Of a stretch of DNA of 20,000 bases, positions 4,288-17,973 are shown piece by piece; positions within the stretch are counted from its first letter, which is position 1, and each line of letters starts with the position of its first letter. The stretch is taken from the IMG/VR virus record IMGVR_UViG_3300020395_001275; one strand, 5' to 3'. The notes below the pieces were generated by a model. The model had not been told where the DNA came from, made no database searches, and was given only the letters and a program-made list of their open reading frames with translations. Origin of the DNA: an uncultured virus (IMG/VR IMGVR_UViG_3300020395_001275) (Duplodnaviria > Heunggongvirae > Uroviricota > Caudoviricetes). Both the position numbers and the translations under genes were made by a program.

Positions 4288-5370
4288 TTAACCGATTGAT
4301 GGTGCTGTTAAAGCAACTTGAGTACTCTCAGCAGATGCTAAGTCAAGTGGGAAGTTGTGAGCGTTACGCTCGTGCATTACTTCCATACCAAGGTTTGCTC
4401 TGTTTAGGATGTCACCCCATGTAGGAACAACTTTACCGTTAGCATCAACAACTGATTGGTTAAAGTTGAAACCGTTCAAGTTGAATGCCATTGTGCAGAT
4501 ACCCATAGAGGTTAACCATACACATACAACAGGGAAAACTGCTAGGAAGAAGTGAAGACTTCTTGAGTTGTTGAATGAAGCATACTGGAAGATAAGACGA
4601 CCAAAGTAACCGTGTGCAGCTACTATGTTGTATGTTTCTTCTTCTTGTCCAAACTTGTAACCATAGTTCTGAGAAGTAAGACCTGATGTTTCTCTGATAA
4701 GAGAAGATGTTACTAATGAACCATGCATTGCTGAGAATAAAGATCCTCCGAACATACCTGCTACACCTGCCATGTGGAAGGGGTGCATTAATATGTTGTG
4801 CTCTGCTTGGAATACAAACATGAAGTTGAATGTACCTGAGATACCTAGTGGCATACCATCAGAGAAAGATCCCTGACCGAATGGGTATACTAAGAATACA
4901 GCGAATGCAGCAGATACTGGTGCAGAGTATGCAACACAGATCCAAGGACGCATTCCTAATCTGTATGATAGTTCCCACTGTCTTCCCATGTATGCTGAGA
5001 TACCAATAAGGAAGTGGAAGATTACCAACTGATAAGGACCACCATTATACAACCATTCATCAACAGTTGCTGCTTCCCAGATTGGGTAGAAGTGTAGTCC
5101 GATAGCGTTTGATGAAGGAACAACTGCACCAGAGATGATGTTGTTACCATACATGAAAGAACCCGCTACTGGTTCTCTGATCCCGTCGATATCGACAGGA
5201 GGTGCTGCTATGAAAGCAACGATAAAACATGTTGCTGCTGCGAGCAAGCATGGGATCATGAGTACTCCGAACCAACCAACATAGATTCTGTTGTTTGTTG
5301 AAGTTACCCACTCACAGAACTGAGGCCATCCTTGTAATAAGGAGCCTTGCCTTTTTGAGATTGTTGTCAT
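4288..5370 (-). CDS. psbA: Photosystem II D1 protein
   Basis: Unambiguous 360-aa D1 sequence ([34 protein letters not shown]); no intron; Gln at position 130. Confidence 0.99.
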
Positions 5371-5374
5371 GAGG

Positions 5375-5490
5375 ACATTTGAATAGTAGGGCTCAAAGGG
5401 TAGAGCGAAACTATATTTCCACCAATCCCTTCACTGGTGGATATGAGAGACGTACTTTATACTCCCATAGGTCTCGGTTAAACGGGAGTC
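5375..5490 (-). ncRNA. Structured psbA 5' UTR, PhotoRC-II-like cis-regulatory RNA
   Basis: Stem ACUCCC/GGGAGU whose loop GAGAC is complementary to a downstream GUCUC, and stem UCCACCAGU/AUUGGUGGA whose loop GAAGGG is complementary to a downstream CCCUUU. The position upstream of cyanophage psbA matches the described PhotoRC-II motif. Confidence 0.7.
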
Positions 5491-5516
5491 TGTGTCGAAA
5501 ACCGAACACATTACCT

Positions 5517-15375: not shown

Positions 15376-15553
15376 CCCACTTACCTAGCACCATAACACT
15401 TGGGTTGTCTTCTTCAATCCATTCATGCCACTCCATATACAATGCAAACATATCTTCGTACTGTTTATCTAAGCACAGTTCATCACTACGATCCTGCATC
15501 CACTCTAGAAGTCTGTCAAGTTCATGCTTTAGTTTTGGAGGTGTGTTGTTCAT
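15356..15553 (-). CDS. Hypothetical protein
   Basis: ORF track 65 aa, acidic. Confidence 0.6.
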
Positions 15554-15962
15554 TGAAGTAGTCTTTTTTCATATAGCGTCCTAAGATGTTTGAGTTGTAA
15601 TAGTTCTCATCCTCACTTAGAACATTGTTGAGGAAGAGTTGTTTGGTTTCTTCATAATTCACCCAACCTTTAGTGATATGTAGTGATATTATTTCTCGTT
15701 TGAAACTGGAATTTCCAAGAGACTTTCTATCGGTATTAAGTTCGTCACTAGATCCATAGTATTTTTTCCAGTCACTCTCACTGCGAACCTTCCTGCTTTT
15801 ACCTCTAGGCTTTCTAAATTGGTAGAAGTATTTACGTCCGATGTATTTCCTACCCGTGATGAGATTTGTAATACAGTAGACGAAACCGAAGAAGCCGTCA
15901 ATGTCAGCAGAAGTAAAAGTTGTACCCTGATAGGTCCAGGGGTTCTCATAATCTCCTTCCAA
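15522..15962 (-). CDS. denA: GIY-YIG endonuclease, T4 endonuclease II (DenA)-like
   Basis: GFVYCITNLITGRKYIGRK, ESDWKKYYGSS and YYNSNI motifs; CTAAATA box at 15984-15990. Confidence 0.8.
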   Translation of the reverse strand: MEGDYENPWTYQGTTFTSADIDGFFGFVYCITNLITGRKYIGRKYFYQFRKPRGKSRKVRSESDWKKYYGSSDELNTDRKSLGNSSFKREIISLHITKGWVNYEETKQLFLNNVLSEDENYYNSNILGRYMKKDYFNEQHTSKTKA

Positions 15963-15969
15963 AGTTTTT

Positions 15970-17061
15970 TCATAATCTTTCTTTATTTAGGGTCATGCCT
16001 TCATACCAATACTTGAAACTAAATGGTGGCCACTGTGCATAACCATAGTCAGTGTTACCAATTGCTTTGTCCCAACTCATACTAACTGAAGCATCTCGAA
16101 ATTTATTAAAGGTTTCGTCAGTAGAGATCAAACTCTTAGCATAGTCCCAAAAAGGTGTATCGTATTTAGATCCAAACTGGTAGTGCCAGAGTATAAAATT
16201 TTGAACTCTTCTAAGATACTTCTTAATATTAGGTCTTGTACCAGTTATTATAGCACTATAAATCTCTCTTGTCCAGTGGAGGTATGCTTCGATGGCGGTA
16301 CTTTCTAATGGTTCTAAGAAAAATAATTTATTACCCTGTAAAAATATCCTATCATCTATGATAGGTTCACGTGCAACGTATGATTCAAATGTCAAATGTC
16401 TAGTGACCTCTACATCAAATTTTTCCCCGAAATTTTTTTCTGCTTCAAATGTATTTGTAATTTCATTATTGTAAATGTAACCAACTGAACCTTCATGCGA
16501 TGGGGATGATGGATCCATGGGTATAACAAATGTCCAACCATCAGGTGTTGCAACACACCTAGTGTACAGTACATCTTTAGTATTCCATTTTGGTTTACCG
16601 AGAACAGCAGCGTTAACAGGGCTGATTAATTTAACCCGATCATCTGGTGTACCACCTCTAGCATCAATAACATAATCAGCATCCACATCTTTAGGATTTA
16701 CATCAGCTTCAGTAACTTTAAATCTTCCAGACTTTAAAATATAATCTTGCATTTCATGGGGACAAAAATGCATAGCCATATTCTCTGCAGGAAATGGTGA
16801 CATAACAAAATCATTTACCTTACCCCACCCCTCATATAAAAAACCTGTCTTGGGTGTGGCATGTACTGGATTGTTATACCAATTAAATTGTCTAGTATTA
16901 TGTAATAGTTGTAATGCACCAGGTATGGTGGCTTGTCCTACAGTTACTGGTGGTATGTGGGGATTATATATTAACTCTACGTCTAATTCTTTTGCATACC
17001 ATGATAAGTATAGGGCGGTGAAACAACCTGCATTACCTGCACCTATGATGCTAACTTTCAA
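15970..17061 (-). CDS. Flavin-dependent halogenase-like protein (tryptophan halogenase/PrnA family)
   Basis: IIGAGNAG Rossmann motif, VGQATIP, ATPKTG (candidate catalytic Lys), GWTFVIP (WxWxIP-like) and FLEPLEST; TTG start coupled to the upstream stop. Confidence 0.85.
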   Translation of the reverse strand: MKVSIIGAGNAGCFTALYLSWYAKELDVELIYNPHIPPVTVGQATIPGALQLLHNTRQFNWYNNPVHATPKTGFLYEGWGKVNDFVMSPFPAENMAMHFCPHEMQDYILKSGRFKVTEADVNPKDVDADYVIDARGGTPDDRVKLISPVNAAVLGKPKWNTKDVLYTRCVATPDGWTFVIPMDPSSPSHEGSVGYIYNNEITNTFEAEKNFGEKFDVEVTRHLTFESYVAREPIIDDRIFLQGNKLFFLEPLESTAIEAYLHWTREIYSAIITGTRPNIKKYLRRVQNFILWHYQFGSKYDTPFWDYAKSLISTDETFNKFRDASVSMSWDKAIGNTDYGYAQWPPFSFKYWYEGMTLNKERL

Positions 17062-17210
17062 TCTGCGTATCCATCATCATCGTCACCACTATACCACTGC
17101 TCTCCATTACTGTCAATATATGCACTCGTGTCTGCGTATACTTCTGACTTTAACTCAGACAGAAGGTCTTCTAAATCTTGTATTAATGTTTTTAATCTCG
17201 TTCTCTGCAT
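17058..17210 (-). CDS. Small acidic hypothetical protein (50 aa)
   Basis: Manual ORF MQRTRLKTLIQDLEDLLSELKSEVYADTSAYIDSNGEQWYSGDDDDGYAD. Confidence 0.7.
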   Translation of the reverse strand: MQRTRLKTLIQDLEDLLSELKSEVYADTSAYIDSNGEQWYSGDDDDGYAD

Positions 17211-17243
17211 AAAAAATCCCCGATTACATTATGTAGTCGGGGA
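17211..17243 (-). terminator. Rho-independent terminator after the DUF4278-like gene
   Basis: Minus strand TCCCCGACTACAT-A-ATGTAATCGGGGA followed by TTTTTT. Confidence 0.75.
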
Positions 17244-17259
17244 ATAAATTAGAGTACCG

Positions 17260-17400
17260 TTAACTCTTTGAAGCGAACTTACGTTTTACTTTGATACCAC
17301 GATACATTAGATCGAAGTTTCTCTGTTGTGCTTCCGCTTGTACCATTTTACGGTACTCTTCAGTGTCATACTGGACACCACGGTATGTGACGTTTGCCAT
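17260..17400 (-). CDS. DUF4278-like small protein (46 aa, two YRG motifs)
   Basis: Manual ORF MANVTYRGVQYDTEEYRKMVQAEAQQRNFDLMYRGIKVKRKFASKS; AGGAG RBS; lies downstream of glutamine-riboswitch-like RNA, the known context of DUF4278. Confidence 0.85.
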   Translation of the reverse strand: MANVTYRGVQYDTEEYRKMVQAEAQQRNFDLMYRGIKVKRKFASKS

Positions 17401-17435
17401 TTGCTTTGCTCCTGTTGGAATTGGGTTGATTAGAC

Positions 17436-17654
17436 CGTTCCTTCAGTCGGCTTTTGCGTCCTCAAAACATCCTTCTTCTTCTACTTTTGTAGCAAAATAG
17501 TTAATCAGATCTGACTTGCTTCTGTCATCAAGATGTTCATCTTGCATAACTTGAACAGCGAGCTCTGACCACTGAACACATTTAATAGTCCAATGGACTG
17601 GTTCATGTGATGCTAATAAAGATAGGTAAAAAAGAAAGGGCATGAGGATGAACG
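17436..17654 (-). ncRNA. Second glutamine-riboswitch-like aptamer, split by a 180-nt P2 insert
   Basis: 5' half CGTTCATCCTC (17654-17644) and 3' half GAGGACGCAAAAGCCGACTGAAGGAACG (17463-17436); P1 CGTTC/GAACG and P2 TCCTC/GAGGA. Confidence 0.7.
17443..17643 (-). CDS. 66-aa hypothetical protein nested in the riboswitch aptamer
   Basis: ORF track MPFLFYLSLLASHEP...EEEGCFEDAKAD; hydrophobic N-terminus and two Cys; the last codons and the stop are encoded by the aptamer 3' half. Confidence 0.7.
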   Translation of the reverse strand: MPFLFYLSLLASHEPVHWTIKCVQWSELAVQVMQDEHLDDRSKSDLINYFATKVEEEGCFEDAKAD

Positions 17655-17658
17655 AACC

Positions 17659-17699
17659 CGTTCCGAGTCGGCTTACTTGCGTCCCATGTGGGATGAACG
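17659..17699 (-). ncRNA. Glutamine-riboswitch-like aptamer (glnA/Downstream-peptide family), compact unit
   Basis: CGTTC-A-TCCC-ACAT-GGGA-CGCAAGTAAGCCGACTC-G-GAACG: P1 CGTTC/GAACG, a P2 hairpin, and a CGCA...CGAC/AGTA junction. Confidence 0.75.
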
Positions 17700-17704
17700 T
17701 AAAG

Positions 17705-17732
17705 GTATGTTAGCATACCCACATGTATTTAG
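17705..17732 (-). promoter_or_regulatory. Promoter region of the riboswitch leader: late box CTAAATA and NtcA-like palindrome
   Basis: CTAAATA at 17726-17732; GTATGTTAGCATAC (GTA-N8-TAC) at 17705-17718. Confidence 0.5.
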
Positions 17733-17739
17733 TCAAGCT

Positions 17740-17973
17740 CTACTTATAATTCTGCAACCATTCCTTTAAAGATGTCTGGTATCCTGACTCTCTACTAGGA
17801 GGTTCCTTAATCCCTTTCATCTTCTTGTAATCGTTGTGCATTGCTCCCAGTAACCATGCCTGTGCTAGTTGCTGAGGACCCTCTTTCAACAATCGGATTT
17901 GATATTTCGAGAGACCAGCCTTCATCTCCAAATACTCCTCTCTCCACGATGTGTGGGGTTGTTGGTTCGTCAT
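17740..17973 (-). CDS. Conserved cyanophage hypothetical protein
   Basis: ORF track 77 aa (WREEY...LLKEGP...QAWLLGAM). Confidence 0.75.
   Translation of the reverse strand: MTNQQPHTSWREEYLEMKAGLSKYQIRLLKEGPQQLAQAWLLGAMHNDYKKMKGIKEPPSRESGYQTSLKEWLQNYK

Follow-up and report, generated by a model that had tools for sequence, protein, structure and literature searches.

We analysed the leader of a small DUF4278 gene in a 20,000-nucleotide (nt) stretch of DNA from an uncultured virus (IMG/VR record IMGVR_UViG_3300020395_001275). This whole stretch is called the window. Its numbering is used for all coordinates, and the cassette described here was read on the minus strand. The source of the window was a T4-like cyanomyovirus (ocean cyanophage). 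A compact glutamine-riboswitch-like aptamer (unit 1) was followed by a second one (unit 2), and the P2 hairpin loop of unit 2 was filled by a complete 66-amino-acid (aa) open reading frame (ORF). This nesting had been proposed in a sequence-only reading of the window, together with the idea that translation of the ORF and folding of the aptamer control each other. Its anatomy and coordinates held for every element, on the minus strand, when compared with the sequence and the ORF list. The architecture was very probably a real, selected module of RNA plus gene. The region of the cassette was probably the leader of a small cyanophage transcription unit, with a promoter, tandem glutamine-riboswitch-like units, the DUF4278 gene and a terminator. 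The features were as follows, in the order of the transcript.

17707..17736, minus strand: promoter-like site, TTGACT, 18-nt spacer, TAACAT, with TG before the second hexamer; 9 of 12 consensus matches
17659..17699, minus strand: unit 1, compact glutamine-riboswitch-like aptamer; P1 CGUUC/GAACG, P2 UCCC-ACAU-GGGA, core CGCAAGUAAGCCGACUCG
17655..17658, minus strand: linker GGUU (4 nt), which joins the 3' strand of P1 in unit 1 to the 5' strand of P1 in unit 2
17643..17654, minus strand: 5' half of unit 2; P1 strand CGUUC (17654-17650), A, P2 arm UCCUCA (17648-17643)
17443..17643, minus strand: nested 66-aa ORF, PHROG 6471, filling the P2 loop; ATG 17643-17641, TGA 17445-17443
17436..17464, minus strand: 3' half of unit 2; UGAGGA (17464-17459), core CGCAAAAGCCGACUGAAG (17458-17441), P1 strand GAACG (17440-17436)
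17401..17435, minus strand: spacer, presumed expression platform; Shine-Dalgarno (SD) sequence AGGAG (17413-17409), 8 nt before the DUF4278 start
17260..17400, minus strand: DUF4278 (IF17-like) gene of 46 aa; Pfam PF14105; PHROG 5049, E 4.6e-20
17211..17242, minus strand: terminator-like hairpin, CCCCGA...UCGGGG followed by a U run, visible in the sequence

Unit 1 read CGTTCA-TCCC-ACAT-GGGA-CGCAAGTAAGCCGACTCGGAACG on the minus strand (17699-17659). The second 5' arm, CGTTCATCCTC, was located at 17654-17644 on the same strand, and the last base of the P2 5' arm UCCUCA was the A of the nested AUG. With this A included, P2 of unit 2 can reach 6 bp (UCCUCA/UGAGGA). At the other end, TGAGGA-CGCAAAAGCCGACTGAAG-GAACG (17464-17436) overlapped the end of the nested ORF. 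The 3' arm and core, GAGGACGCAAAAGCCGACTGAAGGAACG at 17463-17436, encoded E-D-A-K-A-D, and the final six codons of the ORF and its UGA lay in the P2 3' arm and the aptamer core. The nested AUG was positioned in or against P2, and the UGA inside the conserved core. The nested start had been described as lacking an obvious SD sequence, and no GGAG, GAGG or AGGA was found in the 16 nt before the ATG. The 9-nt 5' motif CGTTCATCC occurred twice in the 20 kb, both times here, with 0.07 expected and none of 200 shuffles reaching two. The 27-nt 3' motif GGACGCAA-N12-GGAACGG was also found twice in the 20 kb, both copies being in the cassette (0.01 expected). The 3' halves of both units, GGACGCAA-N12-GGAACGG, were equal in length.

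IMG/VR was scanned with the exact 3'-arm pattern of unit 2, which gave at least 120 viral loci, or 121 with the window. The counts of recurrence, linkers, SD motifs and spacers given below are among these listed matches. Unit 2 carried an insert of 138-195 nt in 77 loci, was compact in 40 and was cut off in 4. It was resolvable in 117 of the 121 loci and ORF-bearing in 77 of these, i.e., two thirds were split. Unit 1 carried an ORF insert of 190-224 nt in 30 of 105 fully visible copies. When the states of units 1 and 2 were combined, 51 loci were compact/ORF, 24 compact/compact, 16 ORF/ORF and 14 ORF/compact. In the remaining loci the unit-1 5' arm was off the locus (9), unit 1 was unresolved (2) or unit 1 was absent (1, locus L119). 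The linker consisted of G and 2-5 nt in all 114 loci with both units visible. Six isolates were inspected. P-TIM40, S-SSM7 and P-SSM7 had an annotated hypothetical gene inside unit 2, P-HM2 had an ORF inside each unit, and P-TIM68 and S-PM2 had two compact units. The same pattern was found only three times in 185,579 species genomes, once in a 189-kb phage contig of a Prochlorococcus single-cell assembly, and the form was therefore essentially viral. The sequence-only reading had overlooked that the layout is common in cyanomyoviruses and is present in the first unit too.

The identity of the units was examined with Rfam, whose gathering thresholds are 35 bits for RF01739 (Glutamine, glnA RNA) and 33 bits for RF01704 (Glutamine-II, Downstream-peptide). 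At these thresholds, no match was obtained in the cassette region. Unit 1 lay just under both, with 31.2 bits on RF01739 and 30.7 bits on RF01704, and the latter match included two non-standard pairs in the second hairpin. Split unit 2 gave no RF01739 or RF01704 match in the window at E ≤ 10, because the model cannot span the 180-nt insert. The likeness of the native leader to glutamine riboswitches was thus borne out below threshold on both models for unit 1, but not for the split unit. In other loci, compact unit-2 copies with the same arms scored 32.9-38.6 bits on RF01739 (5 of 12 loci at or above 35 bits), and unit-1 copies reached 40.1, 39.3 and 34.3 bits on RF01704. The phage units are intermediate between the Rfam types and score close to or under either threshold.

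A covariance model (R1) of 44 positions was trained on unit-2 sequences from other viral contigs, 26 of them compact and 10 split; the window was excluded, as were L069 and L119, which are closest to it. Tolerance of a long insert was built into R1; the match of the window's arms and core was not. R1 matched the split unit at 17654-17435 with 58.9 bits (E ~1e-14) over positions 1-44 of 44, and placed the ORF as an insert within the P2 loop. Unit 1 was matched with 35.2 bits (E 5e-8), and these were exactly the two matches in the window. Scores were 48-60 bits for split units and 61-70 bits for compact ones. The claim that the split unit, with its ORF as a loop insert, is an aptamer of this kind was consistent with this match to a model from other phages. 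As in RF01739, the P1 strands of unit 2 (17654-17650 and 17440-17436) enclosed the junction, with the ligand-contacting C1-G pair, and the CGCA strand was present in ACGCAA (17459-17454). R1 aligned these elements, and the mean P1 pair probability was 0.92 in 78 split units. P3 was reduced to AG/CU around CCGA. The core of unit 1 had AAGUAAG (E-loop 5' strand) but CUCG instead of UGAAG, and the core of unit 2 had CUGAAG (E-loop 3' strand) but CGCAAAAG instead of GAAGUAA. The two units were systematically unlike in the window and in loci L007-L126, with CGCAAGUAAG...CUCGGAACG in unit 1 and CGCAAAAG...CUGAAGGAACG in unit 2.

An alignment-free comparison of the P2 arms used CGTTCA and ACGCAAA as anchors and covered 78 unique split units. 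Pair 1 was U-A in all 78, and pair 2 was C-G in 77 and U-G in one. Pair 3 was C-G in 60, U-A in 11, U-G in 6 and A-U in 1. Pair 4 was paired in 74 units (C-G 26, U-A 22, U-G 17, A-U 9) and pair 5 in 76 (A-U 38, U-A 24, C-G 8, U-G 6). Across the ORF, compensatory changes were found at three of the five P2 pairs. Pairs 3-5 were paired in 97.4% of cases, compared to 66.4% (standard deviation 2.6) when the 3' arms were permuted among loci, and none of 10,000 permutations reached the observed value. In alignment A4 (95 distinct rows, fitted to the structure of R1), 99.8% of P2 cells were paired compared to 90.2% in shuffles, and 110 cells were changed on both sides compared to 33.8 (0 of 500 shuffles). 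When the partner was slid by 1-3 columns, pairing was 41-66% and at most 8 cells were changed on both sides. The covariation of TCCTC/GAGGA-type arms across the insert, anticipated in the sequence-only reading, was therefore found in relatives. Protein constraint cannot explain the compensation, because the positions involved belong to the 5' arm, which is not translated, and to the codon preceding Asp. Compensatory changes keep the two P2 arms complementary over the 138-195 nt of coding sequence between them. Unit 1 behaved in the same way: in 29 split copies, P2 pairs 1-5 were 95% paired versus 85%, and in 54 compact copies 93% versus 64%. The P1 helix was identical in all 95 rows of A4, and therefore no covariation test of P1 was possible.

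Thermodynamic folding predictions indicated that the interior of the ORF assists closure. The mean P2 pair probability was 0.765 for native sequences, compared to 0.18 with the interior shuffled (native higher in 77 of 78) and 0.30 with the codon order shuffled (native higher in 76 of 78). These predictions suggested that the coding sequence is biased towards folds that join the P2 arms. In the window, P2 was present in both the minimum free energy (MFE) structure and the centroid. In the MFE structure, the U-rich N-terminal codons (PFLFYLSLL, 17643-17600) paired with the GAA/GAG-rich C-terminal codons (KVEEEG, 17500-17465) and extended P2. RNA pairing may shape the composition of the nested protein in this way, with U-rich hydrophobic N-terminal and GAA/GAG-rich acidic C-terminal codons.

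The nested ORF was examined as a protein in 80 split unit-2 copies, including the isolates and the window. The ATG was 3-7 nt after CGUUCA in all 80, and the ORF was in frame to the UGA of GACUGAAGG in 76. It stopped one codon earlier, inside the P2 3' arm, in three copies and was out of frame in one, so that the stop was inside the core or the 3' arm in 79 of 80. In the early-stop units (L044, L089 and L098), the P2 3' arm contained TAA or TAG immediately ahead of the DAKAD codons, and the aptamer-encoded tail was therefore dispensable. The nested ORF of L101 was the one out of frame with the core UGA. The 71 unique unit-2 products had 49-66 aa, a hydrophobic start and two invariant Cys, and their shared tail, C-x-(W/E/K)-D-A-K-x-D, was the plain translation of the aptamer. 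In family B, the main unit-2 family, two Cys were invariant in 69 sequences. In subfamily A1, which includes the window (33 sequences), H13, W18, C22 and C59 were invariant. Length differences in the alignment preserved the reading frame. Families A and B were related (hhalign probability 95.6%, E 1.2e-8). A third nested family (MTKALLLL..., unit 1) was not linked to A or B by hhalign (probability 8-12%), though its two Cys align.

Residues 9-59 of the window ORF matched positions 9-61 of the 66 in the PHROG 6471 profile (E 4.3e-14). It had 208 homologous metagenomic clusters, none of them named. A Pfam search of the nested protein gave no family, and a Foldseek search against PDB gave no match at E ≤ 0.001 (best E 3). 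In the ESM Atlas, all matches were hypothetical clusters from viruses (highest score 0.88). AlphaFold predicted a confident two-helix core with pLDDT 92-95 over residues 21-50 and a disordered aptamer-encoded tail. The ratio of nonsynonymous to synonymous substitution rates (dN/dS) was 0.11 between the window and L069 (dN 0.023, dS 0.211) and 0.09 between the window and L119 (dN 0.040, dS 0.457). Gene callers often extended unit-1 nested ORFs upstream by MLTYLYVHP (P0011-P0013, P0015, P0016 and others), through a promoter-proximal hairpin and the CGTTCATCC arm. This extension was probably an artefact of start choice.

A ribosome at the core stop codon covers the P1 3' strand, and therefore translating the nested gene is incompatible with keeping unit 2 folded. 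The melting of the second aptamer by a translating ribosome, as claimed earlier, is supported by geometry taken from the sequence alone, since translation as far as the UGA requires that the ribosome open both the 3' arm of P2 and the 3' strand of P1. We consider, with a probability of roughly 0.6, that the P2 hairpin of unit 2 is stretched around a real small-protein gene and that sensing and translation compete on one mRNA. At low glutamine, or before the 3' half is transcribed, ribosomes would initiate at the 5' end of the ORF, which is open and rich in U. Every ribosome reading to the core UGA would unwind P2 and the P1 3' strand and would keep unit 2 unfolded. When the 3' half is made and glutamine stabilises P1, the AUG would be buried in or against P2 and the extended helix, and the nested gene would be silent. 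In this glutamine-closed state, the SD-led DUF4278 gene would be translated, if it follows the analogous leaders of gifB and of the MED4 DUF4278 gene, which are of the ON type (Klähn et al. 2018). Both types of glutamine riboswitch located before DUF4278 genes are ON switches (Klähn et al. 2018, PMC6212724), and the CGUUC/GAACG helix is stabilised when glutamine is present (Huang et al. 2019, PMC6698751). Taken together, the two points suggest that high glutamine would close the loop, hide the AUG and allow DUF4278 translation. A single mRNA would then give two small proteins in reciprocal amounts, weighted by glutamine. By this analogy, we regard reciprocal control of the nested gene and DUF4278 by glutamine as having about an even chance.

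Several points weighed against the competition of sensing and translation. Rfam was without a match for the split unit, and unit 1 remained under both thresholds. Neither unit alone had the full type-I core, as unit 2 was without the E-loop GUA and unit 1 without the UGAAG strand. The loci were picked by the exact 3'-arm pattern, so that conservation of the 3' half was given by construction and the sample was biased to this arm type. A4 was fitted to the model structure and leans towards it, and related sequences inflate its covariation counts. The invariance of P1 meant that comparative data cannot tell which strands pair. The z-score of the window fold was only -2.2. In addition, the median dN/dS was 0.77 over 789 pairs (dS 0.1-1.5), with only 76% below 1; this broad value probably reflects saturation and misalignment between subfamilies and is hence uninformative, and only close pairs were used. 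The selection on the ORF expected in the sequence-only reading was thus seen in the conserved family and in close pairs, with dN/dS about 0.1, but not in the broad median. Of the refuting conditions set in that reading, all that could be examined computationally spoke in its favour. For the split unit, we infer glutamine binding, start masking and the effect on DUF4278, and the ON direction of DUF4278 control is borrowed by analogy from cellular leaders.

The two units may also not be independent, which the sequence-only reading had overlooked. In an interlocked double aptamer, an outer P1 would form between the 5' strand of unit 1 and the 3' strand of unit 2, and GAACG/CGUUC would form an inner hairpin with the linker GGUU as its loop. 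The E-loop would be completed from AAGUAAG of unit 1 and CUGAAG of unit 2, and the ORF hairpin would be a side arm of a composite sensor. In a variant, this fold would be the ligand-free competitor of the side-by-side fold. We consider such interlocking rather unlikely. One modelling group paired GAAGUAA with UGAAGC as the E-loop of a glutamine-I crystal construct (PMC5393176), and of these two strands, unit 1 was limited to the first and unit 2 to the second. The best Rfam match in the compact tandem of locus L074 joined the 5' half of unit 1 to the 3' half of unit 2, with 43 bits compared to 33-38 bits for single units. The linker was always short. The folding energies also spoke for interlocking and against side-by-side units: the interlocked fold was lower in all 24 natural compact tandems (mean -21.2 versus -15.9 kcal/mol, a difference of about 5) and was more stable by 3.7 kcal/mol in the window (-73.7 versus -70.0 kcal/mol), where the unconstrained MFE structure used the outer helix. 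However, these nearest-neighbour differences are small and ignore tertiary and ligand contacts, and covariation cannot choose between the two pairings when the P1 strands are invariant. A lone split unit was kept behind a promoter-like site in L119, which indicated that a unit-2-type core can persist alone, and type-II aptamers function without a canonical E-loop (PMC6698751). Interlocking alters the wiring, not the nesting of the gene.

The P2 loop might instead be a safe harbour that tolerates extra RNA. The gene would use the upstream promoter, P2 would be kept for DUF4278 control, and nested expression would be independent of glutamine. The hairpin is indeed peripheral: it has 12 to 48 nt in compact units, and it was swapped for a short hairpin in crystallography (PMC6698751). 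The presence of the ORF differed between close relatives (in unit 1 of P-HM2, not in that of the window), and compact variants with the same joints were found in metatranscriptome contigs. However, the ORF always filled the entire loop, with its ATG 3-7 nt after CGUUCA in 80 of 80 units and often paired in P2, and its stop was in the core or 3' arm in 79 of 80. An SD-like motif was located before 2 of 77 nested starts, leaving 75 without their own, and before 82 of 84 recognised DUF4278 starts (the start was not recognised by pattern in 33 loci). The ORF interior was biased towards P2 closure, and the geometry denies the independence of translation and folding. This reading was judged unlikely.

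A dead aptamer, where the insertion destroyed unit 2, its halves are decaying and unit 1 is the sole glutamine sensor, is already disfavoured and highly improbable. Rfam did detect no second aptamer in the window, but both halves were intact, the arms covaried by compensation in the 78 unique split units, the R1 scores of split units (48-60 bits) were close to those of compact ones (61-70 bits), and the split form was the majority state (77 of 117 listed loci). Least probable of all, and also already disfavoured, was a non-coding insert whose 180 nt are a long structured P2 extension with an incidental ORF; the insert folds as a long irregular hairpin and the start has no SD, but 76 of 80 frames were open to the same core UGA with in-frame length differences, residues were invariant (two Cys in 69 family-B sequences; H13, W18, C22 and C59 in 33 of family A), dN/dS was about 0.1 with the nearest relatives, and AlphaFold gave the two-helix core (pLDDT 92-95, residues 21-50).

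The ORF bodies behaved as exchangeable cassettes. The tails of 120 homologues of the window ORF were GRK in 84, DAKxD in 17 and other in 19. The GRK tail was the unit-1 core read to the UAA of AAGUAAG, the DAKxD tail was the unit-2 core, and the other tails included the form stopping in the P2 arm. The window ORF body (17643-17470) was identical at 155 of 174 positions to the ORF nested in unit 1 of L050. The arms and last codons of the window equalled those of L023, whose ORF body was identical at only 91 of 174 positions and unrelated. The body matched one locus but the arms and tail another, and therefore ORF bodies move between fixed aptamer frames. The ORF body of the window is usually found in the first unit of other phages, and the tail alone changes with the host aptamer. 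The breakpoints of this exchange lie at the ATG and at the last Cys codon. L119 (1-625) had a single split unit right behind a TTGCAT...TATAAT-like site and no unit 1. It combined a 5' arm of unit-1 type (TCCCATG), an ORF body of window type and a unit-2 tail, with an imperfect P2 of three contiguous pairs. Its sequence suggests a hybrid that arose by deletion from an ORF/ORF tandem. In metatranscriptome contigs, sequences that skipped 179-197 nt exactly between the arms were compact variants of other phages. In addition, the conserved halves of the aptamer would provide short stretches of homology by which units and phages exchange ORF bodies. Only tentatively, one aptamer may act as sensor, translational gate and recombination frame, where the Cys-pair protein would be made at low and the DUF4278 protein at high glutamine, ribosomes would reset the sensor, the halves would be universal homology arms and pairing would shape the protein.

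The elements around the units were also examined. The promoter-like site would put the transcript start a few bases before unit 1. It was weak alone, as a consensus scan found one site with 1.4 expected; TATAAT-like boxes were located at an equal distance before CGTTCA in S-SSM7, S-PM2 and P-TIM68. Metatranscriptome contigs spanned the ORF and both junctions, with window-identical pieces at 17492-17642, 17361-17461 and 17657-17848. These window-identical contigs from RNA libraries were compatible with transcription; ends, strand and level are not readable from contigs, and DNA carry-over is possible. Gaps in this coverage at 17100-17261 carry no evidential weight. The distance from unit 2 to the DUF4278 start was 35 nt, and the spacer before DUF4278 was 30-39 nt in 75 of 84 listed loci. 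The DUF4278 ORF passed the PF14105 cut-off narrowly (25.4 versus 25.3 bits) and contained the YRG-Y motif twice. A terminator consensus scan called no site; the loop of the visible hairpin is longer than 8 nt. The hairpin after DUF4278 (17209-17259, minus strand) gave a sub-threshold NsiR1 match, 26 bits with a gathering threshold of 39, from the hairpin and U run only. The same terminator hairpin underlay a sub-threshold anti-hemB match.

The cassette was flanked by a 50-aa ORF at 17058-17210 (minus strand, PHROG 878) and a 77-aa ORF at 17740-17973 (minus strand, PHROG 16908), both conserved small phage ORFs. Other genes in the window were psbA, heme oxygenase, a 2-oxoglutarate/Fe(II) (2OG-Fe(II)) oxygenase, a SegE-type GIY-YIG endonuclease, a tryptophan-halogenase-like gene, nrdB and nrdA. 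A PhotoRC-II RNA (RF01717, 77.5 bits) was located at 5405-5501 on the minus strand, directly upstream of psbA (4288-5370, minus strand). The SegE-type GIY-YIG homing endonuclease gene (15522-15962, minus strand; Pfam E 8e-49) lay 1.3 kb downstream of the cassette. Its product could promote local gene conversion in the variable region around the cassette. In another contig, at locus L082 (1167-1439), a manA RNA (RF01745, 167.8 bits) and a tRNA were found about 240 nt after the DUF4278 cassette. The nearest isolates of the window were P-HM1, MED4-213 and P-HM2, with about 80% identity over one third of the 10 kb tested.

Riboswitches are usually taught as non-coding leaders. In the Salmonella mgtA Mg2+ leader (mgtL) and in the mgtCBR leader with its two ORFs, the translation of embedded ORFs decides the RNA structure. 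The regulatory peptides encoded by these ORFs are very short and are not known to have a function of their own, and the ORFs lie outside aptamer hairpins; in contrast, the phage ORF encodes a conserved protein family of 49-69 aa that is exchanged as a cassette. Group I introns, e.g., in T4, host homing endonuclease ORFs in peripheral loops and retain long-range pairing. Those introns are self-splicing and their ORFs promote mobility, whereas a metabolite sensor and an ORF too small for an endonuclease were found here. Promoter-stem-loop cassettes, reportedly described by Arbiol and colleagues in 2010, are said to shuffle small genes in T4-type phages, with short conserved flanks as recombination anchors in hyperplastic regions. 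The flanks found here are two riboswitch aptamer halves, not promoter hairpins.

The closest known systems are the glutamine riboswitches I and II of cyanobacteria (RF01739 and RF01704; gifB/IF17, DUF4278). They share with the phage units the CGUUCA...CGCA...GGAACG core, the downstream DUF4278 family and a leader about 35 nt before an SD-led start. However, only the phage unit holds a complete conserved gene in its hairpin loop, with the stop in the core, and each phage unit carries one strand of the type-I E-loop. A two-piece glutamine-II aptamer assembles on glutamine in vitro and its hairpin is replaceable (Huang et al. 2019, PMC6698751). It resembles the phage unit in that separate strands of RNA form the pocket in a glutamine-dependent manner. 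The two-piece aptamer is an artificial one whose cut lies in the linker after CGCA, whereas the phage break is natural, falls within the hairpin loop and is spanned by about 180 nt of translated mRNA. Tandem arrangements of glnA RNAs have been described (Klähn et al. 2018, PMC6212724; Weinberg et al. 2010, PMC2864571), and a 2017 survey listed only two glutamine aptamers in cyanophage genomes (McCown 2017, PMC5473149). The excerpted literature, including a methylophage paper (PMC9004378) and the S-CREM1 paper, covers glutamine riboswitches, tandem copies and few phage occurrences. As far as found, the excerpts of published accounts of glutamine riboswitches contained no mention of a gene inside the aptamer.

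In the architecture described here, a metabolite sensor and a protein gene share nucleotides, and ribosome traffic is physically coupled to ligand sensing. If true, this would be a new way to make a two-output switch from one short mRNA, and a natural aptamer would fold across about 180 nt. Covariance-model scans miss split aptamers and many of the listed contigs carry them, and therefore the use of riboswitches by phages is probably underestimated. The system is small enough for direct reporter and probing work. The finding points to a cyanophage nitrogen-status circuit, with a glutamine signal, an IF17-like protein as output and, in addition, a family of small Cys-pair proteins.

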